From: a bacterium
GTDB lineage: Bacteria; Patescibacteriota; Minisyncoccia; Phycocordibacterales; UBA12088
Reading direction: 5' to 3'
Assembly (NCBI GenBank): GCA_003252295.1
Contig: QKEV01000013.1
Coordinates: 25,920-89,919 of the forward strand
Length of the DNA stretch: 64,000 nt
Position 1 is the first letter of the stretch. Every line of letters begins with the position of its first letter. Below are positions 18,050 through 35,823 of this stretch, piece after piece. The position numbers were made by a program, and so were the translations under genes. Below the pieces are notes generated by a model. The model was not told the DNA's origin. It saw only the letters and a list, made by a program, of their open reading frames with translations, and did no database searches.

Positions 18050-18481
18050 ATGAAGTACATAACTTATAACACCTATATGAGCATGTTTCTCCTCGTGGTA
18101 GTCATACCACAGGCAGCATTTGCGGAAACTGCTATTCATAACAACATTTCTGTTTCAACAAAAACAGGTGGCAACAGCGCACCAAATGGTGGCGAGATAG
18201 TGACCGGTTCACAACGTGCATCTGTACATATTGAAACCCGAGTTAACGATGAAGCGGTAACAGGTATACAAAAAACATCGGACCAAGATACTGTCATTCA
18301 CACGGCAACAGTTATCTCCACTTCCCCAACTGTATCCATTACTACTCAAAAGACACACCAAACCGCAGTTCTACCGCTTGAGTACGAGGTATCAAAAAAA
18401 GACACACACTTAATCCTTATCTCTCACCTCATTACTAGTTATTCAAAAACAATGGCTTATGTACTATCACATCACATGTAG
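18050..18481 (+). CDS. Small secreted protein carrying one copy of the N/T/G-rich module
   Basis: 143 aa; signal peptide; NNISVSTKTGGNSAPNGGEIVTGSQRASVHIETRVN resembles the repeat unit of its neighbours. Confidence 0.4.
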   Translation: MKYITYNTYMSMFLLVVVIPQAAFAETAIHNNISVSTKTGGNSAPNGGEIVTGSQRASVHIETRVNDEAVTGIQKTSDQDTVIHTATVISTSPTVSITTQKTHQTAVLPLEYEVSKKDTHLILISHLITSYSKTMAYVLSHHM

Positions 18482-21431
18482 CATACTGCGACGACATGCA
18501 TACGTACCTCTGAGCACTATACTGCTTTTGGTTGTGATGCTACCTTTTCAAACGACATCGCTCCATGCACAAGAAGAAACTGTAGTTACAACACAAGAGG
18601 TGCAAGATACCGTAACAACTGGAGGAGAAACTGGTACTGTTGGTGAAGGTACAACCAACACGGAAAGCACCACTCCAACAACAGAGGCAGTTGATACTAC
18701 CAACGACACATCAGAAGATACAACAGCAACCACGATCGACACCGGTGATGCGGATGCACTACTTGAAAGTGAAACTGATGCAAACACCAACAACACCTCG
18801 GTAACCGAGGTGGTTACTACACAGCAAGAAGAAAGCGAGACTAGTACAGATACATCATCGGAAGAAACAGACAAGAATACAGAAGACACAACATCAACCG
18901 GTGACGTACCACCTGACTCAGAAACGACGGTAACAAATGATAACACCGCAGATGTTGCACTCGATGCAACCATTACAGCTGACACCGGCAACAATACAGC
19001 TCTTGATAACAATGAGGCGATCATCACCACCGGTAATGCAGTGAGTACCGCTAATGTCGTCAATGTGGTCAATACAAATATCTTTAACTCAACAGGACTG
19101 TTCTACTTTCTTAACCTCATACTTGGCAATATCTCATTTGATACGAGGGATCTCTTTTCGATCTTTACTGGAGATACAGAGGTGACAGGGGGATGTGGTG
19201 ACGCCGACCCATGCACAGTTGGAGACACATCAGTAACCGTGAACAATACCAATACCGCCGTGGTAAACAACACCCTCGAACTGATCGCCAATACCGGCAG
19301 CAACACAGGTAGCGCAACAGGAGACGTAAGCATCACCACAGGAGATGCATATGCTTCTGCAAACATTGTGAACCTAGTAAACACCAACATCACCGACACT
19401 AATTACCTCCTCCTCACAATAAACGGTTTTGACGCTGGAAGCGGCGGCGTTGTTTTCCCTGGTGCTGAGTGGTTTTACGAACTCTTGAGTCAAGGTGAGA
19501 GCATTGCGCAAGGCAGTCAGGTGACGGTAGAAAACACCAACACTGCAATCATCAACAACACGAGCTCGGTTACCGCTGACAGTGGTGGCAACACGGTTGA
19601 AGGAGATGACACATCGATTACTACCGGCAACTCAGGTGCTCAAACATCGATAGTAAACCAAGTTAACACAAACATCTTTGGCAGCTCAATCTCCCTCCTC
19701 TTCAACATTCAGGGTTCTTGGGCTGGAGAGATTTTTGGGCTCCCTGATGGTATGAGCTGGAGAGAAACTGCAAGTGGCGTTGAAATATTCTTTGATGGAG
19801 ATACGGTGCAAGCTCCTGCGGGAAGCACCGATAACCTCACCGTTACAAACACGAATAACGCAGAGATAAGCAATAACGTTTCTGTGTTTGCATTAACCGG
19901 AGATAACATGGCAACCTCCGAAAGCGGTGATGCAAACATTGAAACCGGTTCGGCACAAGCATCAGCAAACATTGTGAATATTGTAAACACGAATGTGCTC
20001 GGTAGGAACTGGATACTCGCCATCTTCAATATACTCGGTGACTGGAATGGCAACATTTCTTTTGGACAACCAGACCTTTGGATTGGCGTGCGCGCACTCA
20101 CACAACCAGCAAACATACGAGTGGGGAGCTGCTTCGAGTACGAGTTCACGGTAAATAACTTTGGTGATGCAGACGCACATGATGTCGTACTGTACAGCAA
20201 CCATACACCATTCCAGCAAGCTATTGATTTCATGCAACGGGAAGCAAACGGTTCATACTCCTACCCTATTGGTGATGTAGCAAGTGGCGACTCTATCACC
20301 TTCACCCTTCCTATCTGTGTTAGCGAGTTTGCAAATGCCAACAGGGACATCACCACTACATTTGAGGTACTCGAAAATGAAGACGATGCTGACTATGCAA
20401 ACAACAAGGACACCATAGGGTTCACCATGGCAAAGGCAATTGGTAGTGCACTCGTCTTTGGAAAAAAGTATCCAGATTTCAGCATCCAAAAAGTTGTCGA
20501 TAAAAAAACGATTACTGCATCAAGTACGGTAACGTATGAGATAACCATACAGAATGGTGAAAATCCTATCTACAACGCCCTCCTCGTTGACACCATATTC
20601 AACCCCGATAACCGCCCTATACATGAGCAACGATGGGGACTTGGAACGATACTCAAGAATGAAACGATCATTATCAGCTACGAAGCGCTCTTTAACGAAG
20701 ACTCTTCTGCGGGTATGTACCTCAACGAAGCATTCATATCAGGTACAACACGCGAACCTGCAGAAACAGTACAAGACCCTATCAAGTCTCCTGTTGCAAG
20801 TGTGTCGGTAAATGTTGTTGATGAACTCCCTGCAGCACCTTCCACAACATGCACGCCACTCCTCAACACATACATACAGAAAAATGGGAACAACAGTCGA
20901 GACGAGGTTGGTGAACTACAGTTCTTTTTGAGAACCATTGAAGGGGACACTTCGGTATCCCTTACAAAAGAGTACGACGAAGCAACCATTCAAGCAGTGC
21001 GCGCCTTTCAGGAACGGTACGCACAAGACATACTTGAACCATGGGGTATGACAGAAAGCTCAGGGTACGTGTACTACACAACACAAAAGAAGATCAATGA
21101 ACTTTGGTGCAAGGATATCGACTTCTCACTAACAGATGAACAATTGAAAGAGATCGAGACTTTCAAAAAGAGAACGAGGAACTACATCGAACGTCATGTT
21201 AATCTTCCCGAAGAAACATTTGAAATGTTTGGAAGTATGCAGGAGGAAGCACCTGTTCCTGTTCCAGCGATACACATTGAAAAAGAAGAGCAAACTACTG
21301 AACAGCAATTAGTATACCCTCATCAAATTGCAACAGCGGAAGCAGCAACAGAAGGTGTAGATACCATGGCAGCACTCATTAATGCCTTACGAACGGGTGT
21401 AAAAAACTCACTACTGTTCTTCTCCCGCTAG
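18459..21431 (+). CDS. Large secreted surface protein: T/E/D-rich linker, 4x ~80-aa N/T/G-rich repeats, two DUF11/CARDB-like domains, PG_binding_1-like domain
   Basis: 990 aa. Repeats such as VTVNNTNTAVVNNT..NTGSNTGSATGDVSITTGDAYASANIVNLVNTNI occur 4 times. VGSCFEYEFTVNNFGDADAHDVVLY is DUF11-like. GELQFFLRTIEGD...DEATIQAVRAFQERY is peptidoglycan-binding-like. Confidence 0.6.
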   Translation: MYYHITCSILRRHAYVPLSTILLLVVMLPFQTTSLHAQEETVVTTQEVQDTVTTGGETGTVGEGTTNTESTTPTTEAVDTTNDTSEDTTATTIDTGDADALLESETDANTNNTSVTEVVTTQQEESETSTDTSSEETDKNTEDTTSTGDVPPDSETTVTNDNTADVALDATITADTGNNTALDNNEAIITTGNAVSTANVVNVVNTNIFNSTGLFYFLNLILGNISFDTRDLFSIFTGDTEVTGGCGDADPCTVGDTSVTVNNTNTAVVNNTLELIANTGSNTGSATGDVSITTGDAYASANIVNLVNTNITDTNYLLLTINGFDAGSGGVVFPGAEWFYELLSQGESIAQGSQVTVENTNTAIINNTSSVTADSGGNTVEGDDTSITTGNSGAQTSIVNQVNTNIFGSSISLLFNIQGSWAGEIFGLPDGMSWRETASGVEIFFDGDTVQAPAGSTDNLTVTNTNNAEISNNVSVFALTGDNMATSESGDANIETGSAQASANIVNIVNTNVLGRNWILAIFNILGDWNGNISFGQPDLWIGVRALTQPANIRVGSCFEYEFTVNNFGDADAHDVVLYSNHTPFQQAIDFMQREANGSYSYPIGDVASGDSITFTLPICVSEFANANRDITTTFEVLENEDDADYANNKDTIGFTMAKAIGSALVFGKKYPDFSIQKVVDKKTITASSTVTYEITIQNGENPIYNALLVDTIFNPDNRPIHEQRWGLGTILKNETIIISYEALFNEDSSAGMYLNEAFISGTTREPAETVQDPIKSPVASVSVNVVDELPAAPSTTCTPLLNTYIQKNGNNSRDEVGELQFFLRTIEGDTSVSLTKEYDEATIQAVRAFQERYAQDILEPWGMTESSGYVYYTTQKKINELWCKDIDFSLTDEQLKEIETFKKRTRNYIERHVNLPEETFEMFGSMQEEAPVPVPAIHIEKEEQTTEQQLVYPHQIATAEAATEGVDTMAALINALRTGVKNSLLFFSR

Positions 21432-22076
21432 TAGCGTAAGGAAAGTAAGTGTCGCCTCTGCCCCCTTCTCTCCCGCAAGAGCAAAACTATCATCGTTACC
21501 CTCACTACCACTTGGATCACTCACTGCTTTGATCACGATACTTGGTACAGCATGCTGCCTTGCAGCATACACAATTGGGTAGCTCTCCATGTCAACGATA
21601 CCCACACCATCCATACCATTCTTTTTGTCTATAAACTTCGAAGTCGTTATTCCCTTCTCAACAACAACAAAACCAGGAAGGTTATGAACTACTGCAAACA
21701 TTGATGTATCAACTTCAACCTGTTTACCTGAGGATAGTTCCTCCCACACCCGTGGCACAACAACATCACCTATTGCAAGTGATGGTGCGACAGCACCTGC
21801 AATACCTGACACCACAACATCTCTTATAGGCAAGAATGAAAAAAGTTTATGTATAGCCTTCTCAGCTTTTTTTGGCCCAACTCCTGTACTAAAAAAAACG
21901 CAAGGTTTACCAGACCACTTAGTAAAGTAGTAGGTTACTCCTTTATGTTTGCAGGTGTGCTCTATAGCAACTCTTTTTAAAAGCGCATTGAGTTCAAGAG
22001 GAAAAGCGGTAACAACCGCTGTAACAGGTTCATTGTGTAGATCATAAGCACACCTGTTTCTCTTAAATTGCCACAT
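21411..22076 (-). CDS. Nucleoside phosphorylase-family protein (MTA/SAH nucleosidase-like, PNP_UDP_1)
   Basis: 221 aa; SGIAGAV, GDVVVP and VDMESYPIVYAA motifs. Confidence 0.6.
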   Translation of the reverse strand: MWQFKRNRCAYDLHNEPVTAVVTAFPLELNALLKRVAIEHTCKHKGVTYYFTKWSGKPCVFFSTGVGPKKAEKAIHKLFSFLPIRDVVVSGIAGAVAPSLAIGDVVVPRVWEELSSGKQVEVDTSMFAVVHNLPGFVVVEKGITTSKFIDKKNGMDGVGIVDMESYPIVYAARQHAVPSIVIKAVSDPSGSEGNDDSFALAGEKGAEATLTFLTLLAGEEQ

Positions 22077-22078
22077 AC

Positions 22079-23485
22079 CTAGATTGTTTGCTGCATGACG
22101 TAGTACACCTCTTTTGGCGTACCATCGTACTCAAGGATACCAAAGTGATTCTCAATAGTGTCGGTATCTGCTCCGAGGTCTCGGTAGCTGTACCAGAACA
22201 GAGGTCCCATCCACTCATTTTCTTCTTTATACTCATATGCTTCCACAAACATATCCGCTTGAAATTCTTCTGATACATGTGTCGGTTGTGACCAAGAAAA
22301 GGTACTATTACCATCTGCTTCCTTCCCTGGTCCGCCAGTTGGTGCACCAAACTCGGTCACCCAAACTTTTTTCCCTCCATCACCATTCTTTTCCATGATA
22401 CCACGCAAGCTCCACATACTTTTATCCATCTGGGTCCACGCGTTACTGGTTCCCGCCTCCTCTGGACTCAAAGGAAAACTATATGGATGAAAACCAAGCA
22501 CATCAAAGAAACCTTGTGCACCATTCTCATACATACGCTCAAGGTACTCTCTAGGTGACACACTTGTATCATTCGTGTCAGAAGGAGCAAGACCCCCACT
22601 CACCACAACCGCATCAGGATCTATAGTGTGTATTGTACGGTAGGTACGTTTCAAAAGCTGTGTGTACTTGTACGCATTCACACCACCTGCCCAAAACTTT
22701 GCAATGTTTGGTTCATTCCATATTTCCCAGGTATCCACTCCCATTGGCTCATAGCGTTCTACTGCCTTTTCTACAAATACCGCAAACTGATCAATATCTT
22801 TCGGAGGACATTTGCTCGTGTACTTACAGGTATCCTCTCGTGCCCACACCGGAGTGTAAGTGATAATCGGGAGCACCTCTATACCGCGCTCATACGCAAG
22901 GGTTACTATACGGTCAAAGCTAGTCCAGTTGTATATATCCTCACGTTCATTCTGAATAGTGTTCCACGAAAGGTCACAGCGTATCCAACCAATATGTAGT
23001 GAGGCAATATCATCAAGTACCATCGCTACCTCACGCTCCTCCATGTATGAGAGTGTTGCCCCCATAGAGAGACCGTACTCGTAGTTCTGTACACCTCCCT
23101 CTCCCTCTGCCTCAACATCTTGCGCAACCTTCACCTGTTCTTTTTCTGCATAGACACCAGCATCCTCCGCAACCTGAGGAACATCTGAAGTAACCGCTTC
23201 CGTACCAGTTGCTTGAGTGTCCACATCTTCTACTGTAACTGCATCCTGCTTTGGAGCAACCGAGACATCATACTTACTAAACACAAACCAGTACGTAAAA
23301 CCGAGCAACATGAGCACTAAAAGAAAGACACCACCAGCAAACACAACTGCTCGCTCCAGCGTATCTTTGTTTATCTCTTTGATATTTTTTTTCTTACTCA
23401 TATTTGGAATTAAAAATGCGTTGAAAAACAACAGCATTAGTATACATAGATATTGACAAAACGCAATAGTTTTAGTATTGTACAC
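22079..23485 (-). CDS. Membrane-anchored glycoside hydrolase, TIM-barrel GH5-like
   Basis: 468 aa; N-terminal TM; acid/base WEIWNEPN and nucleophile VWVTEFG motifs. Confidence 0.6.
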   Translation of the reverse strand: MYNTKTIAFCQYLCILMLLFFNAFLIPNMSKKKNIKEINKDTLERAVVFAGGVFLLVLMLLGFTYWFVFSKYDVSVAPKQDAVTVEDVDTQATGTEAVTSDVPQVAEDAGVYAEKEQVKVAQDVEAEGEGGVQNYEYGLSMGATLSYMEEREVAMVLDDIASLHIGWIRCDLSWNTIQNEREDIYNWTSFDRIVTLAYERGIEVLPIITYTPVWAREDTCKYTSKCPPKDIDQFAVFVEKAVERYEPMGVDTWEIWNEPNIAKFWAGGVNAYKYTQLLKRTYRTIHTIDPDAVVVSGGLAPSDTNDTSVSPREYLERMYENGAQGFFDVLGFHPYSFPLSPEEAGTSNAWTQMDKSMWSLRGIMEKNGDGGKKVWVTEFGAPTGGPGKEADGNSTFSWSQPTHVSEEFQADMFVEAYEYKEENEWMGPLFWYSYRDLGADTDTIENHFGILEYDGTPKEVYYVMQQTI

Positions 23486-23491
23486 GGTACC

Positions 23492-24748
23492 ATGAATAGA
23501 CTGATTGCACTCTTACGAGAGAACAGTCTCATACAAAACTCATTCTATCCGATGCTCTCGACCGCTATTATGGCGGGGCTTGGTTTTCTCTTCTGGATGT
23601 TTGTTGCTCGACTGTTCCCTGAGAGCGAGGTTGGTCTTGCTGCTACCCTTATTTCTGTCATGAGTACAGTGTCTATCTTTTCCCTACTTGGGTTTGACAC
23701 CTCAACCATTCGATTTCTCTCAAAAGAAAAAGACAAGAATGCAAGCATTAGTACAAGCATTATCATCCTCTCTTTCACTGCATTTGTGCTTTCTATGCTT
23801 TTCGTAATCCTTGTTACCACCATCTCACCACAACTCTCATTCCTGTTTGAAAACAAAATGTTAGGTGGACTCTTCATACTCTTTACAATACTTTCTACCA
23901 TTAATGGATACACTGATGCTGTCTTCCTCTCCTACCGCAAGACCAAGTACACACTCATCATCAACACCATCTTTAGTGTTGCTAAGACATGCTTTCCTTT
24001 TCTCTTTATTGGGACTGGTGTGTTTGGTATTTTTGCCTCAGCAGCACTCGCACAGACGATTGGTTTTGTACTGAGCATCATGGTACTTGTTCGCTATTTT
24101 GGATACCGACCATCACTCTCGATTAACGCTTCTATCATACGCAACGTATGGCGATACAGTGCAGGAAACTACGTGGCAGACATTTTTACCTTTCTTCCTA
24201 CCGCTCTTCTGCCTATCATCATTACCAACAACATCGGTGCTGAGCATACTGCTTACTACTACACCACCATGATGATTATTGGATTGCTCTACGTCATTCC
24301 CACGAGCACCATGCGAGCCCTTTTTGCTGAAGGTTCACACGACAAGGACACGGTTTCAAAAAACATCTGTACTGCCCTCAAGACAACGTCTTTTTTCTTA
24401 CTCCCAGCAATGGCTGTGTTATTTCTCTTTGGTAAGTACCTTCTCCTTGCATTTGGTACCAGTTACGTGGAGAGTGGAACCTCACTCCTCTATGTCATGA
24501 CATTCACAGGAGTACTCGTTACCATATCAACACTCTACAGTTCTCTTTTTCGTTTAGAAGGCAACATCCGTGCACTCATTATTAGAAACATGGTGTATAC
24601 AGGAAGCTTAATAGGACTCACGTACATGTTCTTGGAACGTGGTCTCCTTGGTGTAGGTTTTGCATATATCAGTGCATATACTCTTTCAATACTCGTTTGC
24701 ATGGTACTCTATAGGAAAGACCATACTACGATTTGCATAACCAAGTAA
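23492..24748 (+). CDS. Polysaccharide/oligosaccharide flippase (Wzx/MOP family)
   Basis: About 12-14 TM helices across ~420 aa, typical of polysaccharide biosynthesis flippases; start set at MNRLIALL. Confidence 0.55.
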   Translation: MNRLIALLRENSLIQNSFYPMLSTAIMAGLGFLFWMFVARLFPESEVGLAATLISVMSTVSIFSLLGFDTSTIRFLSKEKDKNASISTSIIILSFTAFVLSMLFVILVTTISPQLSFLFENKMLGGLFILFTILSTINGYTDAVFLSYRKTKYTLIINTIFSVAKTCFPFLFIGTGVFGIFASAALAQTIGFVLSIMVLVRYFGYRPSLSINASIIRNVWRYSAGNYVADIFTFLPTALLPIIITNNIGAEHTAYYYTTMMIIGLLYVIPTSTMRALFAEGSHDKDTVSKNICTALKTTSFFLLPAMAVLFLFGKYLLLAFGTSYVESGTSLLYVMTFTGVLVTISTLYSSLFRLEGNIRALIIRNMVYTGSLIGLTYMFLERGLLGVGFAYISAYTLSILVCMVLYRKDHTTICITK

Positions 24749-24752
24749 AACC

Positions 24753-25634
24753 ATGGCTCATCAAAAGAAAAAAGGGGTTCTAGGACGCTTACATGGACGA
24801 TTCAAGGAATGGCGTTTCTGGTACCTCCGCTCACGATGCTTCTGTTCACCAAACTTTCTAGGTATCTTTTTCAAAAACAAATGTCGCTGCAAAACTCTTC
24901 TGTGCTACCCGGATAAACCAAAGTCCTACCATGTACTTTACGAAATATGTAAACACATTGGTTGGCGTATGACGAATGACCTCTCCGATGAGTGTGTAAA
25001 CCTTGCCATACACTTCAGGGATACAACAGTCCGTGATACAAACTCTTCACTCCATACCTACAGTGAAAACCATGAGGTGCTCAACCTCCACAGCACCGAC
25101 ATCAGCAAACGTCACATAGACGAGGTGTTTGGTGAGGTGTTCGGATATGCCATGAGTGTTGATCCGGAAACCTACAAGGGTACCTGTGTACGAAAGTCAG
25201 ATACAAACGCGGTACATGATGGTGCCATTCGTGAGGAGGGGTACGTGTACCAGAAGCTCGTGAACAGTTACTGTGGCAACGACCAGGTAATGGATATGCG
25301 TATACACATCTTTCGTGACACCATTCCTTTCCTCTTGAAGCGTTACAAAAATACGAATGACATCTTCCATATGACCGTAGGTGCAGAGATTGCAGAGACT
25401 GATGAACTCTTGAGCAAAGATGAGCAGGAAAAGATACTTATGTACTGCAAAAAACTCGGCATCGACTACGGCGAGCTCGATGCATTGCGTGACAATGATG
25501 ATGGTAATCTCTACATAGTGGACGCAAACAACACCCCTGCTGGACCAATAGGACCTATCTTCTTTAACAAAAAAAAGTACAAGGTATGGATCGAACGAAT
25601 CAGTAAAGCGTTTGAAGTGTATCTTGTGAAGTAA
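24753..25634 (+). CDS. ATP-grasp enzyme (sugar-transfer-associated / TupA-like ATP-grasp), intact copy
   Basis: 293 aa; C-terminal GIDYGELDALRDNDDGNLYIVDANNTPAGP is the ATP-grasp metal/ATP-binding motif. Confidence 0.6.
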   Translation: MAHQKKKGVLGRLHGRFKEWRFWYLRSRCFCSPNFLGIFFKNKCRCKTLLCYPDKPKSYHVLYEICKHIGWRMTNDLSDECVNLAIHFRDTTVRDTNSSLHTYSENHEVLNLHSTDISKRHIDEVFGEVFGYAMSVDPETYKGTCVRKSDTNAVHDGAIREEGYVYQKLVNSYCGNDQVMDMRIHIFRDTIPFLLKRYKNTNDIFHMTVGAEIAETDELLSKDEQEKILMYCKKLGIDYGELDALRDNDDGNLYIVDANNTPAGPIGPIFFNKKKYKVWIERISKAFEVYLVK

Positions 25635-25637
25635 CAT

Positions 25638-26517
25638 ATGCAGGTCTTCCCACTCAACACACTTCCAAGGCGAGCTAAATCACGTTTTGATGAACAGATA
25701 CTTTGGCCATGGAACACATACAGAGCAGCACGACGTGCTTACAAGCAAGCACGAGAGCGAGAGGGACACGTATCAAAGACTATTCTCTTCTATCCTGAAA
25801 AACCAAAGACCTTTCACACGCTCTACAAGATATGCGCCCATCTTGGCTGGAAGATAACTACAAACCCAAAAGAACACTTTGATACGGCTATTTTTTTTGA
25901 GGACACCACTGTGCGGAAGATTCCACAAAAACTCATTGCAGTATCACAACACCAACCAGTTGTGAATCTCCACAGCACCGACATCAGCAAACGTCACATA
26001 GACGAGGTGTTTGGTGAGGTGTTCGGATATGCCATGAGTGTTGATCCGGAAACCTACAAGGGTACCTGTGTACGAAAGTCAGATACAAACGCGGTACATG
26101 ATGGTGCCATTCGTGTACCAGAAGCTGATCGACACAACACAGCAGGATGGCAGAGCCATGGACCTACGACTTAACATATGGAACGGAAATGTACCCATTG
26201 TCATCAAACGCTACAAGAGCAAGGATGACCTCTTTGACATCACGGTTGATGCTGAATTTACCGAGCCATATGAGGTACTGAGTGAACATGAACTTGAACT
26301 CATTGCACGATTCTCTAAAAAACTTGGTATTGATTACGGTGAATTTGACGCACTTCGTGACAATAGTGACGGAAGACTCTACATTGTGGATGTGAACAAT
26401 ACTCCGGCAGGGCCTATCGGTCCCTTCTACGCAAAACCAGAGGATATGGATCGTTGGTACACCGAAGTGAGTAAAGAAACAGAGAAGGCATTCCTCCTTA
26501 CTTCACAGTCAGAGTAA
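25638..26517 (+). pseudogene. Frameshifted paralog of the ATP-grasp gene (ORFs 25638..26174 and 26038..26517)
   Basis: A 149-nt stretch (25968..26116) is 100% identical to 25085..25233 of the upstream paralog. Immediately after it, 14 nt (aggaggggtacgtg) are missing between CGTG direct repeats, shifting the frame. Confidence 0.6.
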
Positions 26518-26528
26518 CTAAGTATCAC

Positions 26529-26576
26529 AGGTATATACCTAATTATATAATTTAGTATATAATTAGGTATATACCT
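26529..26576. repeat. AT-rich palindrome (AGGTATATACCTAATTATATAA-tttag-TATATAATTAGGTATATACCT) between convergent genes; same family as 13508..13543
   Basis: Read directly from the sequence. Confidence 0.55.
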
Positions 26577-26643
26577 ACTATTCTTGAAAAATTAAATCAC
26601 CACCTGACGATATGGTCGCAGGTGGTGGTATTCATAAAAGCAC

Positions 26644-27207
26644 TTATGCTTTTACCGTAGTGGTGGCAATGTAGTTTTCTATTTTTTTCTTTGCACTCTC
26701 CAAAAGAGGTCTGTTCTCTTGAGAAGAGAACTGCAAGGCAAGATCACAGTACTCAAGTGCCTGAAAAGCTTTTTTTGCATCCATTGCAAGTAGTGCTTTG
26801 AAAAAATATGCAACAGACAGGTTTGGATTTACCTTTTTCAAACCATCCTTAGTGCACCGCTCTATCACCTTGTCGAAATACTCCTCGGCCTTCTCGTACT
26901 CTTGTTTCTTATAGTAATTATTACCAAGGAGAATATTTACCTCTGGTGTATCAAACAGTTTTTGCGCCTCAAGAAGTCTTTCAATTGCTGCATCGTACTG
27001 ACCTCTTATGTGGTACTCATCACTCTCCATACATAACGCCATGTACAGCGCTCCATTAACAATACTCAATACGCTTGTTTCTAACTTCTTGGACGCATTC
27101 TCGGTCCTCTGTTCAATGACACTTAACCCTTTTTGCTCTGCGTTCGCAATAAATGAGCAAGGAAAGAAACAAAAAATACTGAGTAAGAAAATAATTACCT
27201 GTTTCAT
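26644..27207 (-). CDS. Secreted TPR-repeat protein
   Basis: 187 aa; signal peptide; TPR-like LLGNNYYKKQEYEKAEEYFDKVIE. Confidence 0.55.
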   Translation of the reverse strand: MKQVIIFLLSIFCFFPCSFIANAEQKGLSVIEQRTENASKKLETSVLSIVNGALYMALCMESDEYHIRGQYDAAIERLLEAQKLFDTPEVNILLGNNYYKKQEYEKAEEYFDKVIERCTKDGLKKVNPNLSVAYFFKALLAMDAKKAFQALEYCDLALQFSSQENRPLLESAKKKIENYIATTTVKA

Positions 27208-27344: not shown

Positions 27345-28580
27345 CTATCCCAACAGTTTCATGAAAAGTTTTTCTATCTGGTCTACGTATCTCTCTATAG
27401 AAAATTGTTCTGCTTGAGTGTGTGCTTCTTGAGACATACACCCAAGGAGTTCTGGATCACCAAGAATCGTGAGGATCTTTATTACGAGTACCTCAGGATT
27501 GTTTGGTTCTACAAGGTAGCCAACCTCTCCATCTTTCAACCACTCACCCACTCCACCAACATTACTCGCTATGACTGGTCTCCCTACACTCATTGCTTCA
27601 ACCCCCACCTTACCGAACGGTTCAGGCCAGAGTGATGGTACGAGCAAAACTGTCGCGTCTTTGTACAGCTCGTATAGCTCATCTCTCGTCTTATGTCCCA
27701 CGAAATGTACCTTGTTCTCAAGATTGAGTTGTTTAGTAAGTGCCTCAAGCTCACCTCTGTACGCACCCTCCCCTGCTATAGTGAGTGTTGTGTCACTACG
27801 CTCCTTGTGAACCTGAGCAAGTGCTTTAAGTGCCACCTGTACCCCTTTTATTTTTTCAAGACGTCCCACATAAAGAAGGCTCGCTGATGCAGTATCTATT
27901 GGACTCGATGCAAACAGTTCAGTAGCATTAGGTATCACTGTTGCCTCCTTCCCCTCTTTTGCAAGCAAACCTTTCATGTACTCACTCATTACAAGGAAGG
28001 TAGCAACATATCGAAAACCTAAACTATAGATAGGGTAGATACAGTACCTATGGAACAGGTAATGAAGTTTGCCTGTAAGGTTAAGATTCTCTTTCGTAAA
28101 CTCATCAACACCCTCTTTGAAAAGATATTTCGGAAAACCCCACGTGAGGAGACCAAGGAAGTAATCTTCAGCACCATGCACGGTCATGATGATTGGGTAT
28201 CCTTTGAGCGCAAAGAGTACCGATGGTGAAAGTTCATACATGGTGTGAAGCTGCACAACATCTGGCTTGTACTCCAGAAGTACTCGCTTCACTTCCCTGT
28301 ATGAAGCAGGGTAAAACATACGATATAGTGCACGCATAACAAAAGAGTGGTGACTCAAAGCAGGAAATGTGTAATCTGCAAAAAATGTTTTCTCGTCTTT
28401 TTCCCTATCACTTGCAAGCACCCTCACCTCATGTCCACACTCCTCAAGCACACGGTCAGTCAGTACAATACCGTTCTCCGCTCCCCCGCTCTCATACCCC
28501 AAACTTGTAATACGTAAAATTTTCATACTACTTATATATCCGTACCTCACCATTATTAAACACGAGCGATTTATTGGCAT
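27345..28580 (-). CDS. Glycosyltransferase family 4 (GT-B)
   Basis: 411 aa; EX7E motif region EPFGKVGVEAMSVGRPVIASNVGG. Confidence 0.85.
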   Translation of the reverse strand: MPINRSCLIMVRYGYISSMKILRITSLGYESGGAENGIVLTDRVLEECGHEVRVLASDREKDEKTFFADYTFPALSHHSFVMRALYRMFYPASYREVKRVLLEYKPDVVQLHTMYELSPSVLFALKGYPIIMTVHGAEDYFLGLLTWGFPKYLFKEGVDEFTKENLNLTGKLHYLFHRYCIYPIYSLGFRYVATFLVMSEYMKGLLAKEGKEATVIPNATELFASSPIDTASASLLYVGRLEKIKGVQVALKALAQVHKERSDTTLTIAGEGAYRGELEALTKQLNLENKVHFVGHKTRDELYELYKDATVLLVPSLWPEPFGKVGVEAMSVGRPVIASNVGGVGEWLKDGEVGYLVEPNNPEVLVIKILTILGDPELLGCMSQEAHTQAEQFSIERYVDQIEKLFMKLLG

Positions 28581-30921
28581 CTAAAAATGCAACCGGGTAT
28601 GTGTACTTCAGAACAACACCATCGTACGCCTGTCGAGCAACCCCTTCTTGCAAGACTCCACCACTCACAAATACGTAAGCATCTTTCTGTATACTGCCAG
28701 GAAATATGTTTCCACTCACTGGTGTTGTGAGTACTGCTTGCAACTTTTTCTTTCCAAAGCGATCAGCTTGTACCAACGGTTCTTTTGTTGTGGTCGCCAT
28801 ATCCTCAAATATCTGCTGCTGAAGCCAGAGTATGGCTTCCTCCTCTGCGTCGGTCACTACGTAGTGATCATAGTCATCACCAGAGTTGTTGAGGTGTACT
28901 GGTGGTATGCTTCCTCCAACAAGTTGTGCAAAAACTCCTGTAGAAAAAAGAAAGAATAGTACAGCAAGTGCTCCAGTATACCTAAGTACTGTTTGATCTG
29001 ACACATCACGCCTTGGGAGTCCAAAGAATGTAACCCACCTTTCAGTAAGATGTGCTACTCCTCGTGCCAACATAATGAGACCGAGTACCATGAATGGCAC
29101 CAACACGAAGAGTGATTGCTGTATTGCACGGAAAACGCCATACTCCTTTGATAAGAGCGGAACAACCATACAGCTCACAATGAAGACCATACTCGCTGCT
29201 GCGAGCGCATACATCTCATCATCAAAACGACGTATCCAGCTCCGGTTATAGAGTGCATAGATGAGTCCCAGGAGAATTGCTAGCTGCAACAACTTTGACA
29301 ATATCTTGCCACTTGCAAGTACCACTTCACCTACACCAAGGAAAGATCCAAAAGTAGTAACGGGAAGAACATCGTCTGGCACGAGCATGTACTCGTACCC
29401 CTCGTACGTTTCTTGAGGAAAGTACAGATCTGGATTTTCTGCTCGTTCATCTTGCACCTCACCAGCAATGAAATCTTCCATAGTGTAATCAGTGGTTCCA
29501 TGATCAAATGAGAAGAAGACAAATACGTCCTGTGAGTATGAACTACCGGTAAAGCCTCCCAAAACTGCACCCATCACATCACCAGCCACTTCCTCTGCAT
29601 GACCACCAGTACCAGTGATCACGTTTGTCCACGCAAAGCTCACCATGACGAGCATGAAGATAATAGGAAGTGTTATGGCACGCTTTCGATACGTCGAGGT
29701 ACTGAGGTTCTTGAAATATGACGGAATAAAACTACCAAACAAACGTAACACTGTTACCACAAGGTAGGTAATCATGAGAACAAACAAGACCGTATAGGTT
29801 GTCGAGTAGTGCGAAAGTACCACACCAACACCAAAGAGAAAGAACAATGTTCTCCTCGCAAAGAGTGATAAGTGACGCTCGAAGAGTACGTACACCATGA
29901 GACCAAAAAACAAGAAAGCAACCTCCTGTCGTATGAGAAATGGCATATCTTGGAAAAAAGTCGGGAACGCCATGAAGCAGAGTCCAGTAAGAAAAGCCAA
30001 TCTGTGGTTGAGCCACGTTCTTGCGGTGAGGTACACCAATACAAGCACGAGTGCAAAAAGTACTTGAAGGAGTACCTTGTAAACATACGGATCAGCAATG
30101 TGTAATGTGTTGACTAAGAGTGTCGGCAACACTGTGATAGATAAGCAGGCATTGTACGCATCTACATAGGTAGACACGTCCCAGAGACCAGCACCCTTTG
30201 CGAGCTGAAAGACAAAAAACTCACGTTGTATATCATGGCCGGACACAAACCATCCTCGAAGTGATGTCATGAAGAGTAGTGCAAGTGCGTTCAGGTACAG
30301 AATTGCTGGTATTACCTGTTTCTCAATACGATTTACAAAGATAACCACTAAGAAACTGTAGAGCGCCATAGCGGCTAACATGAGCAACGTGGTGTTGTCT
30401 TCAATCCCATTATTGAGTCGTACCGCACCATCAATACTCGTCACTACAAAAAATAAAGGTGGTAGCATGAAGGCAAGACCAAGCTTGGTCTCTGCAATAA
30501 GAAAACGAGGTACATGAACAACTAACTCCTCTATATCTTTTAAAGAAAAATATAAAAGAGTGAATAGAACGACACTAAAGAGAAACCAAAGCGGCAATGC
30601 ATCAAGTGGACGAGATATTCCAACAAATGGCAGGAACCAGTTTGCAGCAAGTGCTATGAACATAAGTTCAAGTACACTCACACCTACAGATACCAACACA
30701 GTCCCCCACCCCTTTAGCTGCCTAAGATTAAAAATGCCGAGCGTCAGTATACCGGGTAGTATAAAAAACAGCGGCACACCCAAAAGATACAGCACACCAA
30801 ACATCGTGTTTGCAGAAAGAGAAAGTGTGAGCACAATAGCCCACAGAGCAACAACACCTGCTATAACATTTTTCTTTGTCAGTTTTAATTCCATAACAGT
30901 TCTTCGTACAACGTCATACAT
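28528..30921 (-). CDS. Very large polytopic membrane protein with C-terminal extracytoplasmic domain (DUF2206-like / putative glycan polymerase or oligosaccharyltransferase-like)
   Basis: 797 aa; about 16 TM helices then a ~300-aa soluble domain; sits inside the glycosyltransferase cluster. Confidence 0.4.
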   Translation of the reverse strand: MYDVVRRTVMELKLTKKNVIAGVVALWAIVLTLSLSANTMFGVLYLLGVPLFFILPGILTLGIFNLRQLKGWGTVLVSVGVSVLELMFIALAANWFLPFVGISRPLDALPLWFLFSVVLFTLLYFSLKDIEELVVHVPRFLIAETKLGLAFMLPPLFFVVTSIDGAVRLNNGIEDNTTLLMLAAMALYSFLVVIFVNRIEKQVIPAILYLNALALLFMTSLRGWFVSGHDIQREFFVFQLAKGAGLWDVSTYVDAYNACLSITVLPTLLVNTLHIADPYVYKVLLQVLFALVLVLVYLTARTWLNHRLAFLTGLCFMAFPTFFQDMPFLIRQEVAFLFFGLMVYVLFERHLSLFARRTLFFLFGVGVVLSHYSTTYTVLFVLMITYLVVTVLRLFGSFIPSYFKNLSTSTYRKRAITLPIIFMLVMVSFAWTNVITGTGGHAEEVAGDVMGAVLGGFTGSSYSQDVFVFFSFDHGTTDYTMEDFIAGEVQDERAENPDLYFPQETYEGYEYMLVPDDVLPVTTFGSFLGVGEVVLASGKILSKLLQLAILLGLIYALYNRSWIRRFDDEMYALAAASMVFIVSCMVVPLLSKEYGVFRAIQQSLFVLVPFMVLGLIMLARGVAHLTERWVTFFGLPRRDVSDQTVLRYTGALAVLFFLFSTGVFAQLVGGSIPPVHLNNSGDDYDHYVVTDAEEEAILWLQQQIFEDMATTTKEPLVQADRFGKKKLQAVLTTPVSGNIFPGSIQKDAYVFVSGGVLQEGVARQAYDGVVLKYTYPVAFLDANKSLVFNNGEVRIYK

Positions 30922-33149
30922 GAGTCAGCCACCTTTTTCCAGGTGAACTGCTCGGCATGTTGAACACTCTTCTTTTTCAAACGGACGAGCTCATCTCTAT
31001 CGTTGTGTAGACGCTTCACCGCTTCAGCGAACGCTTCAGGTGTCTGCGGAGAAACGAGTACGCCTGCATCCTGTACGAGCTCACGCAATCCCATTACATC
31101 AGAAGCAACAACTACTAGTCCTGCCGCATGCGCTTCAAGTACTGAAAGTGGCATACCCTCCTTGTCCGAGGTGGTGATAAACACGTCAGAAGTTCTATGG
31201 TACGCACGTACCTCCTCCGGATTTTTCCTGCCAGCAAAGGTCACATTTTTGAGACCTTTATCTGCAGCAAGTTGCTGTAGCTTTTTCCTATCCTCTCCAT
31301 CACCAACAATAGTTAGCTCTGCAATGTCGGTGAGGTGCTTCATGGTGAGCAGTAACCTATCAACCCGTTTCTGCACGGTAAGCCGTCCAACATACAAAAG
31401 TTGCAACATTGCAGTGTCATCATGCGCACTTGTTCTATTGAAGTACTCTTCACCAACACCGTTTGGAATAATACGCACGAGTGCTTCTGCAACACCGTAC
31501 CGCTCTACAACGAGCTGCTTCTGCTCTTCAGAAAACACAATAACCCTGTTCCCTCTCCTCAAAACAAAACCGAGTATATACTTTTTGTACAGCACAAAGA
31601 GTGGACCTAAGATACCTGATGGTTCCACATCAAGATGAAAATGAAACACTAATGGAAAACTTCGTAAACGGGCAATCAAAAGTGCCACCTCTGGAAGACC
31701 CAGCTGAGCAAGGTGTACATGGAGCACGCTGTTTTTAGGAAGAGTGAGAAGCCTATACGGGAGCATCCAGAGTATTGGTGTATGCGCTACCTCAGTAGTC
31801 TTCAGGCGATGCACTGAACAGTTTCCCATCTCTGTTGTACTTGGGTACCGCTTTGCATCGACATTACTCGTGAATACGTGCACCTTCTTCCCTCTCTTCG
31901 ACTGCTCAACTGCGAGCTCCTGTGCCACCACCTCCATACCGCCGACATGTGGTGGGTAGTAGGCAACCAGGTGAGCAATAGCATCCTGCGTACCCAGTAT
32001 ACGAAGGAAAAGATCATTGTATGAGTGCACCCTATCTTCCCATGAGTACAAGGTACTCACCTTCTCCATCCCCTTTACTCCATACCCTTCTCTCTTCTTT
32101 TTATCTTGCAAGAGATCTATGAGGGCACTCGCAAAAACTTTTACCCGTCCAGGTTCAGTGAGTAGTCCTGTCGTACCATGATCCACGAGTAGTGGCACAC
32201 CACCAACACGGGTGCTCACCACCGGAAGACCTGTCGCCATAGCCTCTGCTATAACCATACCAAAACTTTCATTCTTCGTTGGAAGTGCAAACAAGCTCGC
32301 TTTCTGAAACTCTTCCACTAATGCAGCACCATCAAGGTAACCTGTAAAACGCACCGCATCATCTATACCGAGTTCTCGAGTTCTCCTTTCGTACCACTCC
32401 CTCTTATCTCCATCTCCCACGATGGTAAGTTGAGCTTCTGGCACCTTTTTCTTTACGAGAACGAACGCATTGAAGAGTATATCGAGACCTTTATGTTCAT
32501 CTTTCGCACCAAGTCCTGCAACAAAGAGAATGTTGCCCTCCTTCCTTTTGGTTGCATCAGGTATAAAACGTACAGTGTCTACCCCCGGAGTGATGGTACT
32601 GCTCTTATGTTTGTACCGACTCAGAAAATCCTCGCGTACAGAATCAGAAACACACACGATATGGTGAGCTCGCCACAGAAGGAATCGTAGAGGAATACTC
32701 TCGTACAACCCAACAATAAGGTCTAGCAAGAAGTACCCCTTCTTCATACTATTCGTATGGTACGTCACCACAAGTGGTGTACTGCGTTTTTTGAGCAGTG
32801 TCACCACATCACCAAGACCAGGGACCGGCATGTGTACGTTAATGAGATCTGGATTGAGTTCCTTGAGAAGCTTCTTTACCTGCAGGAACCAGGAAAACGA
32901 AAACGGCGTATTTGAAACAGTGAATGAAATCGGCAAACGATACAGTGCAACCTCCCCCACCTTCTCTACGGTCAACTCTTTACCTACTCCTGTTGTGAGC
33001 ACAATAGCACTCCACTTCTCTGTATCAAAACGTGTCGTCACTTCAAACAGGTAACGCTCAAGACCACCACTATGTGGTGGAAAGTATGGGGCTACAAATA
33101 GCACTGTTTTCTTTTGTGTATCTTTGTTACTCATTGTACAGTTCGCCAT
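30885..33149 (-). CDS. Tandem fusion of two GT4 glycosyltransferase domains
   Basis: 754 aa; EX7E-type motifs at FGMVIAEAMATGLPVVSTRVGG and EGMPLSVLEAHAAGLVVVASDVMG. Confidence 0.8.
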   Translation of the reverse strand: MANCTMSNKDTQKKTVLFVAPYFPPHSGGLERYLFEVTTRFDTEKWSAIVLTTGVGKELTVEKVGEVALYRLPISFTVSNTPFSFSWFLQVKKLLKELNPDLINVHMPVPGLGDVVTLLKKRSTPLVVTYHTNSMKKGYFLLDLIVGLYESIPLRFLLWRAHHIVCVSDSVREDFLSRYKHKSSTITPGVDTVRFIPDATKRKEGNILFVAGLGAKDEHKGLDILFNAFVLVKKKVPEAQLTIVGDGDKREWYERRTRELGIDDAVRFTGYLDGAALVEEFQKASLFALPTKNESFGMVIAEAMATGLPVVSTRVGGVPLLVDHGTTGLLTEPGRVKVFASALIDLLQDKKKREGYGVKGMEKVSTLYSWEDRVHSYNDLFLRILGTQDAIAHLVAYYPPHVGGMEVVAQELAVEQSKRGKKVHVFTSNVDAKRYPSTTEMGNCSVHRLKTTEVAHTPILWMLPYRLLTLPKNSVLHVHLAQLGLPEVALLIARLRSFPLVFHFHLDVEPSGILGPLFVLYKKYILGFVLRRGNRVIVFSEEQKQLVVERYGVAEALVRIIPNGVGEEYFNRTSAHDDTAMLQLLYVGRLTVQKRVDRLLLTMKHLTDIAELTIVGDGEDRKKLQQLAADKGLKNVTFAGRKNPEEVRAYHRTSDVFITTSDKEGMPLSVLEAHAAGLVVVASDVMGLRELVQDAGVLVSPQTPEAFAEAVKRLHNDRDELVRLKKKSVQHAEQFTWKKVADSCMTLYEELLWN

Positions 33150-33837
33150 TTGTTACATAGCTAACATCACTCCTCTTTCCTATATGTTGAAACACTCGCT
33201 CCAATCGCTTCCAATCATTATTTTTTTCCAGTTCCCAGCTATGCCCCCACAGGTGAAACACTCCTCCTGTTTCTCTTACTCTATCAAACATGAGTATGGC
33301 AAGCCTATCCCAATGTCTCCATACGCGAAGGAAGGTCAATATATTGAAACGAGTAAGCACGAGCATGCGGAACACATCAGACCAGTGATTATACGTATGT
33401 ACACTTGTGCGTACCGCAAATGGATCTTCACTTTTTGTAAAACAAAAACGTTCTACCGTACGAGCATTACTAAACCCCAGATCACGAACAATATGACTGA
33501 TTTCTTTTGTGTACTTACCTCTTGGGTAACAAAAACTCACCACAGACTTGTTCGTAATGTTCTCTAAGTACTCTTTGGACTCTATGATTTCGTTCTGCAC
33601 CTCAACCGGTGTAAGTTTGGTGAGTTCCCGATGACTCATGGTATGAGCTCCCACTTCAAACACCTCAGCCAGTTTAGCTACCGCTTCATCGTTCAAACAT
33701 TCACCTGCTCCTAGTTCACTATTTTTTGGAGCAACGTAAAACGTCCCCCTTAATCCATACTGCTTCATCAGCTCTGCTACATGCGTATCAAGCACATGTC
33801 CATCATCCCAGCTAGTTGTTACTACGACTTCCTTCAT
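33127..33837 (-). CDS. Polysaccharide deacetylase (NodB homology, CE4)
   Basis: 236 aa; TSWDDGH (TFDDG variant) and HTMSH motifs. Confidence 0.7.
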   Translation of the reverse strand: MKEVVVTTSWDDGHVLDTHVAELMKQYGLRGTFYVAPKNSELGAGECLNDEAVAKLAEVFEVGAHTMSHRELTKLTPVEVQNEIIESKEYLENITNKSVVSFCYPRGKYTKEISHIVRDLGFSNARTVERFCFTKSEDPFAVRTSVHTYNHWSDVFRMLVLTRFNILTFLRVWRHWDRLAILMFDRVRETGGVFHLWGHSWELEKNNDWKRLERVFQHIGKRSDVSYVTNGELYNE

Positions 33838-33842
33838 ACCAC

Positions 33843-35030
33843 TTATACTAAAGCGTGCTTAAGGTTACGCACAACAAATTTCCAATCATACTGTGCAACA
33901 TCACGTTCTGGATTCATTGCATGACGACTATCGAGCACCTGTACTATCTTGTCAGCCAGTGCAGTTTCATCTGTCTCTGTCAGGAATCCGTTTACCCCCT
34001 CAACTATCAGATCCTTAGCAGCGTTGTTAGTGTGTGAGGTTGTTATAGCCGGCAATCCAAGAGCATTAGCCTCAAGCACAACCAACCCAAACCCCTCTTG
34101 CACGGAAGGAAGCACGAGCATTTTTGATGCCTTCATAAACTTGTACTGCTCCCCTGCCTTCACTGAATCAAAAATGGAGACATTTTTCTGGAGCTCTAAG
34201 TTACCAATGAGTGTTTGCAGTGTTATTTTTTCAGGACCATTTCCAATAATATTACACACTATGTTTGGGTACCTAGTTTTTACAATTGCTATCGCTTTCA
34301 CTAAGGTATCGATGTGCTTATGATGCAAAAGTCTACCAACAAAAATTACATCACTTTCATTTCCATCTGGATACACCGAACGCAGGTATTCTGTATCTAC
34401 ACCAAGGGGTATGGTTTCAATAGTTTTCCTCACCCCAGCATGGCGTAAACGAGCTGTGGTATGTTTTGAGTTCGATAAGATAACATCAGGCATACGAAAT
34501 GAAAGCTGTTCAACGAGGTGTGCTACCCATCCAACTACTCCACCTAGGTACTCGTTCCACTTCTCCCTGCCACACACCTCATGCCATGTTGCATACATTT
34601 TTTTACCCTTGATCCAAGTTACGATTCGCGCACTAAAGAGTGGGAAGTACGGCATATGATCTACATCGACCACATCAAACTTTTCAAAAAGAAGTTTAAG
34701 GGTGGCAAATCCAAACATGATAGCCTCGTACATTGAACGACGGCCACGAGTATACATTGGATACTGTTTACAGAGCGCATGGTATTGCACACCTTCATGT
34801 TGTACCACACGAGGTCCATCCCACCACTTCATGGTATAGACATGTACCTCACATGAATCACTCACGAGTCGTTTTGCTAGTTCATAGAGTCTCCTTTCCT
34901 TACCACCATTATGATACGGAAGCACCGCATCTGACACGAATGCTATGCGACGCACAGACTCATCATGCAACGCTTTTTTTTCCTTTACATTTGCTGTGTT
35001 ATGTTTGCTGTTCATATTATGCAAAAACAC
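33843..35030 (-). CDS. Glycosyltransferase family 4
   Basis: 395 aa; EGFGLVVLEANALGLPAITT. Confidence 0.85.
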   Translation of the reverse strand: MFLHNMNSKHNTANVKEKKALHDESVRRIAFVSDAVLPYHNGGKERRLYELAKRLVSDSCEVHVYTMKWWDGPRVVQHEGVQYHALCKQYPMYTRGRRSMYEAIMFGFATLKLLFEKFDVVDVDHMPYFPLFSARIVTWIKGKKMYATWHEVCGREKWNEYLGGVVGWVAHLVEQLSFRMPDVILSNSKHTTARLRHAGVRKTIETIPLGVDTEYLRSVYPDGNESDVIFVGRLLHHKHIDTLVKAIAIVKTRYPNIVCNIIGNGPEKITLQTLIGNLELQKNVSIFDSVKAGEQYKFMKASKMLVLPSVQEGFGLVVLEANALGLPAITTSHTNNAAKDLIVEGVNGFLTETDETALADKIVQVLDSRHAMNPERDVAQYDWKFVVRNLKHALV

Positions 35031-35823
35031 GTCGCTTCTTAAGGTGTGGAACCTTTACAACGTACGATACATCCGGACTCCAAAAATAGTTCTTTAAAAA
35101 CACAAAGAGAATACGAAGACCATCTCTAAACGGTTTTAGGTTTGACTCACCACTTCGTGCAATGTACGAGATCGGTACACAAAATATATTTTCACCAAGA
35201 CGAGCCATCTTTGTTACCATATCCATCTCTATACTAAAATCACCCGCTGTCAGGTACGGACGAAGTCGATTTAACGCATGGTAGTTCCATGCAAAGTATC
35301 CAGTGAGCACATCAGTGATGTTTGCGTGATAGAACATACGAACCAAGAATGAGAACACCCAGTTCCCAAATCGATTACGTCTGCTCATGGCACCCTTCAC
35401 TATTCTTCCAGTAAGTCGTGATCCGATCACCACACTCGCAAAACGAGACTCGAGTGGTTCAATGAGTCGGAAGAGTTCATCTGCTTGGTATGTGTTGTCT
35501 CCGTCAATCATGACTACATAGTCTGTGTCACTTGGTACGTTTTCAAATGCGGTACGCATTGCGTTTCCTTTTCCAGGATTAGATTCATGTATCACAAAAG
35601 CACCATGTTCACGAGCAACACGCGTAGTAGCATCTGTTGAATTGTTATCAACTACTATAATTTCCAACTCGTATCCTTCACGAGTTTTTACCACCTGTTT
35701 GAAACCATCAATAACGGCACCAACACCCTCCTCTTCATTTCTGCATGGTATGAGGGCCGTGATTTTTTTCTTTACCCCGCCTTGGCGGTGGTTTAGTTTT
35801 GTTTTCATATACAAAAGGTACAC
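35017..35823 (-). CDS. GT2 glycosyltransferase (polyprenol-phosphate sugar transferase / DPM1-like)
   Basis: 268 aa; ALIPCRNEE...VVDNNSTD...IDGDNTY DXD-type motifs. Confidence 0.85.
   Translation of the reverse strand: MYLLYMKTKLNHRQGGVKKKITALIPCRNEEEGVGAVIDGFKQVVKTREGYELEIIVVDNNSTDATTRVAREHGAFVIHESNPGKGNAMRTAFENVPSDTDYVVMIDGDNTYQADELFRLIEPLESRFASVVIGSRLTGRIVKGAMSRRNRFGNWVFSFLVRMFYHANITDVLTGYFAWNYHALNRLRPYLTAGDFSIEMDMVTKMARLGENIFCVPISYIARSGESNLKPFRDGLRILFVFLKNYFWSPDVSYVVKVPHLKKRRVFA

Follow-up and report, generated by a model that had tools for sequence, protein, structure and literature searches.

Evidence for recent gene conversion between two tandem, flippase-adjacent genes of predicted ATP-grasp fold, with a frameshift that is probably contig-specific

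The classic example of concerted evolution in bacterial duplicates is tufA and tufB of Salmonella, in which the copies are kept alike by RecA-dependent gene conversion. Here, we describe two tandem genes, A and B, that lie in a 64,000-nt stretch of DNA, referred to throughout as the window. Like duplicates that evolve in concert, they contain a block of perfect identity within otherwise diverged paralogues, and this identity is found within genomes and appears to have been re-established across lineages. Unlike tufA and tufB, they are adjacent direct repeats, 882 nt apart, and exchange seems to have been restricted to a central block of ~190 nt, with about 50% identity remaining in the N- and C-terminal parts.

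The proteins have a predicted fold that matches those of RimK, LysX-ArgX and the D-Ala-D-Ala ligases (Foldseek E about 1e-8) and give weak matches to RimK, YheC/D and MptN profiles. They differ from those ATP-grasp ligases in that the central lid is very short and in that the genes adjoin, or in some genomes are fused to, a Wzx flippase gene. As it stands in the window, copy B also resembles a slipped-strand deletion pseudogene, with one CGTG repeat and a 10-nt spacer lost and the frame changed. In contrast to what a fixed frameshift pseudogene would show, however, an independent assembly of this genome does not have the lesion. Concerted evolution by conversion is already known, and A and B are a new instance of it; in the literature on gene conversion with ATP-grasp or Patescibacteria, we found no description of this case.

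Two tandem genes in a surface-glycan cluster

A and B are embedded in a surface-glycan cluster of a Patescibacteria-like genome. Around them the window holds GH5, a Wzx-type flippase, a TPR protein, several GT4 and GT2 transferases, and DUF2206 (Table 1). The order flippase-A-B followed by a convergent GT4 gene recurs in a related locus (L001). In another (L002), which preserves the order flippase-A-B as well, A and B again stand in tandem, and two more (L003 and L164) carry parts of the flippase-A-B arrangement, in agreement. The association extends to gene fusion: the flippase forms one ORF with A in L008, and with both A and B in L006. The nearest genomes are Patescibacteria/Parcubacteria MAGs, and the family is also present, mostly in single copy, in Bacteroidota, Mycobacterium, Verrucomicrobia and cyanobacteria.

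Copy A aligns end to end with homologues of 300 aa. Exact-sequence look-ups of copy A (293 aa) and of P0005, the 5' product of copy B, gave no match. Comparison with sister genomes had been proposed in an earlier note on this DNA; a protein database search, a genome scan and a metagenome scan found no strain-level relative, and the closest relatives outside the window's own contig share 73% (A) and 68% (B) amino-acid identity.

Both genes had been called tandem ATP-grasp paralogues, a description that holds at the level of the fold and falls short of every curated threshold. The AF2 model of P0001, the closest orthologue of B, built on a 36-sequence alignment, has a pLDDT of 93.4 and a pTM of 0.88. 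All 50 PDB matches listed by Foldseek for it are ATP-grasp enzymes (E 1.8e-8 to 8.2e-7), including ArgX/LysX, RimK, Ddl, PPIP5K, synapsin and ITPK, with a TM of about 0.5 over about 300 columns and 10-18% identity to the solved structures. No curated model scored above its cut-off, as Pfam ATPgrasp_YheCD reached 12.5 and 15.5 bits against 26.8, and NCBIfam MptN 14-15 bits against 350. A PDB profile search returned a weak RimK match (E about 0.05), and a database search returned 50 homologues, about 300 aa long, that all lack a precomputed Pfam domain. K148, Q167 and D257-x-N259 are invariant in 23-36 homologues; judging from motif order, the Lys of VRKS and the D-x-N of IVDxNNTP would occupy the expected ATP/Mg-binding positions. 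Collectively, the models support, at fold level only, the placement of A and B in an unnamed, flippase-associated branch with the ATP-grasp fold. With such a predicted activity, the enzymes would modify a lipid-linked glycan by ATP-dependent ligation before it is flipped.

Table 1. Positions of the genes, repeats and junctions at the A/B locus (window coordinates)
Feature	Position	Strand	Remark
Wzx-type polysaccharide flippase	23492..24748	+	Directly upstream of A; 418 aa by Logan gene call
Copy A	24753..25634	+	293 aa, ATP-grasp fold (predicted); ORF in frame, without six conserved residues
Exact 148-nt repeat, copy in A	25086..25233	+	Longest exact A/B match
Junction ATT/CGT, six codons (xxCPxx) missing	A 25229..25230; B 26111/26112	+	From homologue alignment
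CGTG direct repeats bracketing the indel	25230-25233 and 25244-25247 (25230..25247)	+	Read in copy A
14-nt segment AGGAGGGGTACGTG	A 25234..25247	+	Absent from window B (junction 26115/26116)
Tract tail TACCAGAAGCT, 11 nt	A 25248..25258 = B 26116-26126	+	A/B identity resumes
Copy B, full span	25638-26517	+	Two ORFs, 25638-26174 and 26038-26517, overlapping over 26038-26174
Copy B, 5' ORF	25638..26174	+	178 aa, = P0005; out of frame past 26115, stop at 26172-26174
Exact 148-nt repeat, copy in B	25968..26115	+	Offset 882 from A
Copy B, 3' part	26116..26517	+	+1 frame; ORF formally opens at GTG 26038
TPR protein	26644..27207	-	Convergent with B
GT4 glycosyltransferase	27345..28580	-	Syntenic neighbour of B in related loci

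An identical tract within diverged paralogues

Outside the shared tract, the codon-aligned nucleotides of A and B are identical at a fraction of 0.486, with sliding windows ranging from roughly 0.2 to 0.7, which bears out the earlier view that the two genes are only moderately similar overall. The tract itself is 148 nt of exact identity, followed, after the 14-nt indel, by a further 11 nt in which identity resumes. Counted as a whole, it measures 173 nt in A and 159 nt in B, with the indel internal. Its ends are sharp: 148 + 11 nt at 100% stand against 0.486 in the flanks, and immediately past the end A reads CGTGAAC and B reads GATCGAC. At a background identity of 75%, an exact run of 148 nt would be expected by chance with a probability of ~3e-19; the match is not due to chance. 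The earlier note was correct in reporting a long exact tract. Its length of 149 nt was one too many, and the intervals that it paired, 25085..25233 and 25968..26116, are one base out of register and do not match each other as written. It had also put the deletion exactly at the 3' edge of the identity; as identity resumes for 11 nt beyond the deletion, the lesion is inside the tract.

On the alignment evidence, A and B are old tandem duplicates, since 31 strictly diagnostic columns in the flanks set the A-type orthologues clearly apart from those of B type. Using three A and three B orthologues, we counted the columns that distinguish the two types. Strictly diagnostic columns number 0 of 191 in the tract and 31 of ~720 in the flanks (Fisher p = 0.001); under a relaxed criterion, there are 2 in the tract and 105 in the flanks (p = 2e-9). 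Inside the tract, orthologues are no closer to each other than paralogues are, their identities being equal. The tract of the window is 0.798 identical to the nearest B orthologue (L003 B) and 0.769 identical to the nearest A orthologue (L164 A). Copy B was considered as the donor of the tract and dropped, because there are no diagnostic sites and these two identities are nearly equal.

The same conserved block is shared between A and B in a second lineage. In a Saccharibacteria MAG of 65% GC (L006), the copies match exactly over 202 nt, corresponding to columns 370-571 of a common codon alignment in which the window's tract covers columns 378-568, and in both genomes the most divergent parts of the genes lie on either side. 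Shorter matches are present in L105 (48 nt exact, within about 100 nt at 98% A/B identity) and L008 (41 nt exact). The tandem pairs of L001, L002, L003, L084 and L116 share exact runs of at most 11-23 nt. The tract of the window and that of L006 agree at only 69% of positions (47% of third codon positions), and thus the identity lies within genomes. A conserved nucleotide element, of RNA or DNA, was also considered as a source of the identity and was rejected on the same figure of 69%. As far as the alignments go, the pattern is one of repeated homogenisation of this block in separate lineages.

Recent gene conversion between A and B, as first proposed from the window alone, is well supported by these sequence comparisons. 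The contigs of an independent assembly break at both ends of the repeat (k-1 = 30 nt inside), another lineage has an identical tract in the same block, and the block carries no paralogue-specific signal among orthologues. We propose a model in which one copy would have replaced the central nucleotide-binding block of the other, from 'NLHSTDISK' to 'YQKL' (~190 alignment columns), through gene conversion, a non-reciprocal form of homologous recombination, so recently that no substitution has come to separate the copies. The tract would be bounded by the collapse of flanking similarity, and such a limit would explain why the tract of the independent lineage has almost the same ends.

The 14-nt indel and a six-codon gap, compared with an independent assembly

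To compare the window with an independent assembly, we used Logan contigs (k=31) of run SRR7216773, which may or may not hold the source reads of the window's contig; the literature on this accession yielded nothing relevant. Three contigs match the window, each recorded in 2 samples. L165 equals the window from 13514 on for 2154 nt, and L167 equals positions 18414-25115, ending 30 nt (k-1) inside the tract; neither has a mismatch. L166 (11,111 nt), found by way of the TPR protein gene, equals the window from 26112 rightwards, likewise with 0 mismatches. These breaks, k-1 = 30 nt within the tract on either side, show that its two ends are genuine repeat boundaries in the reads; the part of the tract covered by this check is the outermost 30 nt on either side.

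The reverse complement of L166 begins ACGTGAGGAGGGGTACGTGTACCAGAAGCTGATCGACAC, and the end of the contig reads ACGTG-AGGAGGGGTACGTG-TACCAGAAGCT-GATCGACAC... Its first 30-mer contains the 14 nt and ends at the last base shared by A and B (...AAGCT), after which comes a B-specific G. The 14 nt are thus joined to B-specific downstream sequence, which is the same in L166 as in the 3' part of copy B in the window, and it follows that an intact, one-ORF copy B exists in the population. Elsewhere, the window and the Logan contigs are identical over about 19.9 kb. Their differences are confined to the last 45 nt of the ~190-nt repeat, which marks the frameshift as an allele specific to the contig.

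In the window, the lesion is as first described. The 14 nt are missing from B, CGTG repeats flank them on both sides in A, and the ORF list contains the two overlapping frames into which copy B was said to be split. What B lacks is one CGTG repeat together with a 10-nt spacer, and the reading frame changes accordingly. TRF was blank in either gene, so that no simple-sequence repeat was found at the indel, only two CGTG copies 10 nt apart. When the 14 nt are put back, copy B becomes a single ORF of 297 aa that keeps all the invariant residues of the family. We found no further decay in this repaired copy, either as extra stops or as lost conserved residues, and its sole remaining anomaly is one that it has in common with copy A.

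This anomaly is a gap of six codons. Both copies in the window are without 18 nt between ...GCCATT and CGTGAGG..., and all homologues checked have them. The missing residues fall between HDGxI and REEGYVYQK and include a Pro that is nearly invariant in the homologues. Consequently, the spacer from HDG to YQK is 8 aa here, as compared with 14-16 aa among 79 homologues taken from related loci and 14-17 aa among 39 proteins from the database. In the model of the intact orthologue, the six residues make up a strand and a turn in the small central domain; in the AF2 model of copy A (mean pLDDT 88.9), the strand is gone and residues 157-160 fall below 50 at the gap. The gap, which sits 4-18 nt from the 14-nt indel, had been overlooked in the earlier note.

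L166 bears on the gap through a single terminal k-mer. This contig opens with A, in place of the T found in the window at 26111 (the last base of ATT); in 4/5 close orthologues, A occupies this position and closes the six-codon segment. The ATT/CGT junction of the window is therefore not reproduced in Logan. This is suggestive, but leaves unproven, that the six-codon gap is contig-specific as well; being contradicted at its junction base by the same contig, it may share its origin with the 14-nt deletion.

Collectively, we consider it reasonably likely that A and B are old tandem duplicates with recent and recurrent conversion between them and that the frameshift belongs to this one contig. 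The 14-nt deletion is probably a contig-specific allele, whether variant or artefact, and not a settled loss of the gene. Such an allele could have arisen in two ways. It could be a real minority or sample-specific deletion by slippage between the CGTG repeats, or it could be an artefact of amplification or assembly, such as an amplification chimera, at the end of the repeat. A graph (de Bruijn) assembler cannot invent a junction, and so molecules or reads with CGTG/TACC in B context probably existed; the deletion may be a real allele, even the major one in the source sample.

Readings of the frameshift and their bearing

If copy B were a genuine and fixed fresh pseudogene, as the earlier note favoured, then slippage at CGTG would have removed 14 nt and split the gene after the conversion. 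The lesion has the form expected of this, a textbook microhomology deletion in which one repeat and the spacer are lost, and B is otherwise undamaged, as a fresh lesion would leave it. The need of a graph assembler for real reads carrying the junction also speaks for it, and the absence of six conserved codons from both copies, with the loss of a strand and of local confidence in the model of A, would fit relaxed selection. Nevertheless, in the Logan assembly (0 mismatches over about 19.9 kb), a contig recorded for two samples has the 14 nt attached to the 3' half of B, and the disagreement between the assemblies is limited to the last 45 nt of the repeat, where artefacts and unresolved variants concentrate. 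We therefore regard a fixed pseudogene as unlikely. An inactivated second copy does not stand as the state of the organism: the earlier note had named the presence of the 14 nt as the outcome that would tell against its reading, and in the independent assembly they are seen, in essence as named, ahead of the 3' half of B. Of its two readings, the other, a collapsed or variant assembly, is to be preferred; it would cover an artefact and a real (minority or sample-specific) allele alike.

Collapse in the strict sense would mean that similar but non-identical copies of A and B were merged into one consensus edge and threaded twice, with any errors copied into both. A lesion in a collapsed edge would turn up in A and B alike, and the 18-nt gap does so; at the junction base of that gap, Logan departs from the window, and the agreement between the two at the tract extends over its ends only. 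However, the k=31 Logan graph branches at the same tract ends, so that at least the outermost 30 nt on either side must truly be shared. Partly homogenised tracts in other assemblies (L008, L105) keep their mismatches, and the phenomenon recurs in L006, from another assembly and another lineage. Moreover, even a collapse would require true copies that are nearly identical, and recent conversion would be implied anyway. Taken together, these points make a collapse of distinct copies quite improbable.

Surface-glycan clusters are typical targets of phase variation. The two allelic states of B, found in assemblies of an otherwise identical genome, could accordingly represent recombinational on/off switching, in which a recombination-associated indel hotspot lies in the loop at the tract's 3' end and 14-nt (perhaps 18-nt) variants switch one or both enzymes. 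The off allele of B could be repaired by conversion from A, with which it has 148 nt + 11 nt of perfect homology. In favour of such switching, the lesion lies within a tract that demonstrably exchanges sequence, and the enzyme is encoded in a surface-glycan cluster. Yet there is only a 4-nt microhomology without a simple-sequence repeat, no other tandem pair that we recovered is broken, and no homologue has a shortened loop at the site. The off allele is a single one from one contig, and an artefact explains the data equally well; both the switching and the hotspot behind it are thus highly improbable. Were the hotspot real, the paralogue would serve as a repair template, and the locus would be a case of cassette-like phase variation of a surface glycan in an episymbiotic CPR bacterium.

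Expression of B in spite of the break, by programmed +1 ribosomal frameshifting or as two reassembling polypeptides, can be dismissed: both halves are open and overlap over 26038-26174, but inspection shows no slippery motif at ATT CGT G/TA CCA or at the ACT TAA C stop, the 5' product is left without the conserved YQK hinge, all homologues are encoded as single ORFs, and there is an intact allele. Programmed frameshifting had already been judged unlikely from the window, and here it is rejected, together with a split gene, on the sequence and the intact allele.

The preferred reading is thus one of ordinary concerted evolution together with a contig-specific lesion, be it a polymorphism or an artefact, and the striking part of the first reading, a fresh inactivating deletion, is not upheld. 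As the independent assembly has the intact gene, the frameshift in the public contig should not be counted as gene loss, and MAG contigs are suspect at the ends of short internal repeats. The concerted evolution at this locus would be limited to a domain, in that repeated homogenisation appears to have affected the ATP-binding core, in separate Patescibacteria lineages, and to have left the N- and C-terminal parts, which are presumably substrate-specific, distinct. Known recombination biology would predict as much, and the interest is modest. The family itself, with its predicted ATP-grasp fold, no curated model and a position next to, and sometimes fused to, a Wzx flippase, could merit a biochemical look.

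The public gene call for copy A (P0019) begins at M73, and gene calls on L167 miss the 5' part of A and give antisense ORFs instead.

A six-codon gap in both paralogues and the start of copy A

Both tandem ATP-grasp paralogues of the window, copies A and B, lack the same six codons (xxCPxx; Table). These codons are present in all homologues that we checked, and their proline is nearly invariant. In an AF2 model of copy A, a strand is missing and local confidence is reduced at the gap, whose junction base is T in the window and A in the Logan contig.

In the public annotation, gene call P0019 starts copy A at Met73. Alignments of the homologues with copy A begin instead at the ATG at 24753 and include 24753-24968. 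Among the gene calls on L167, the Logan contig matching the window left of the tract, the 5' part of A is omitted entirely, with antisense ORFs called instead.

Tandem pairs and fusions in other genomes

In two Patescibacteria MAGs, a Wzx-type flippase and the ATP-grasp genes are joined in one ORF, with both copies (L006) or with A only (L008). This arrangement suggests that the ATP-grasp enzymes act at the flippase.

The tandem pair of a further locus, L105, stands in a differing order of genes, GH5 - A - B - flippase, and its two copies are more alike overall (A/B identity 0.6-0.9). They share a stretch of ~100 nt at 98% identity, which lies immediately upstream of the window's homogenised block, and a run of 24 identical nt at the 3' end. 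This pair is either a younger duplication or the product of wider conversion.

Downstream of copy B

Copy B and the convergent TPR gene are separated by an AT-rich inverted repeat, probably a bidirectional terminator; the same site also scores as a 12-nt tandem repeat. Farther downstream lies a large glycan-assembly block, the whole of which is identical between the window and the Logan contig L166.

Table. Coordinates of the features described (window unless a locus is named)
Feature	Position	Details
Six-codon gap, copy A	25229/25230	
Six-codon gap, copy B	26111/26112	
P0019		221 aa
Antisense ORF (example)	24858-25013	minus strand
Flippase + A + B ORF	L006 2636-5749	1037 aa
Flippase + A ORF	L008 94-2274	726 aa
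Tandem A/B pair	L105 2875-4727	
Inverted repeat	26520-26585	
Inverted repeat stem	26529-26576	20 bp
Glycan-assembly block	28528-35823	
DUF2206 membrane protein	within 28528-35823	797 aa
Double-GT4 protein	within 28528-35823	754 aa
ORF	33127-33837	236 aa; counterpart L166 3371-4081 on record as polysaccharide deacetylase
Additional GT4 and GT2 genes	within 28528-35823
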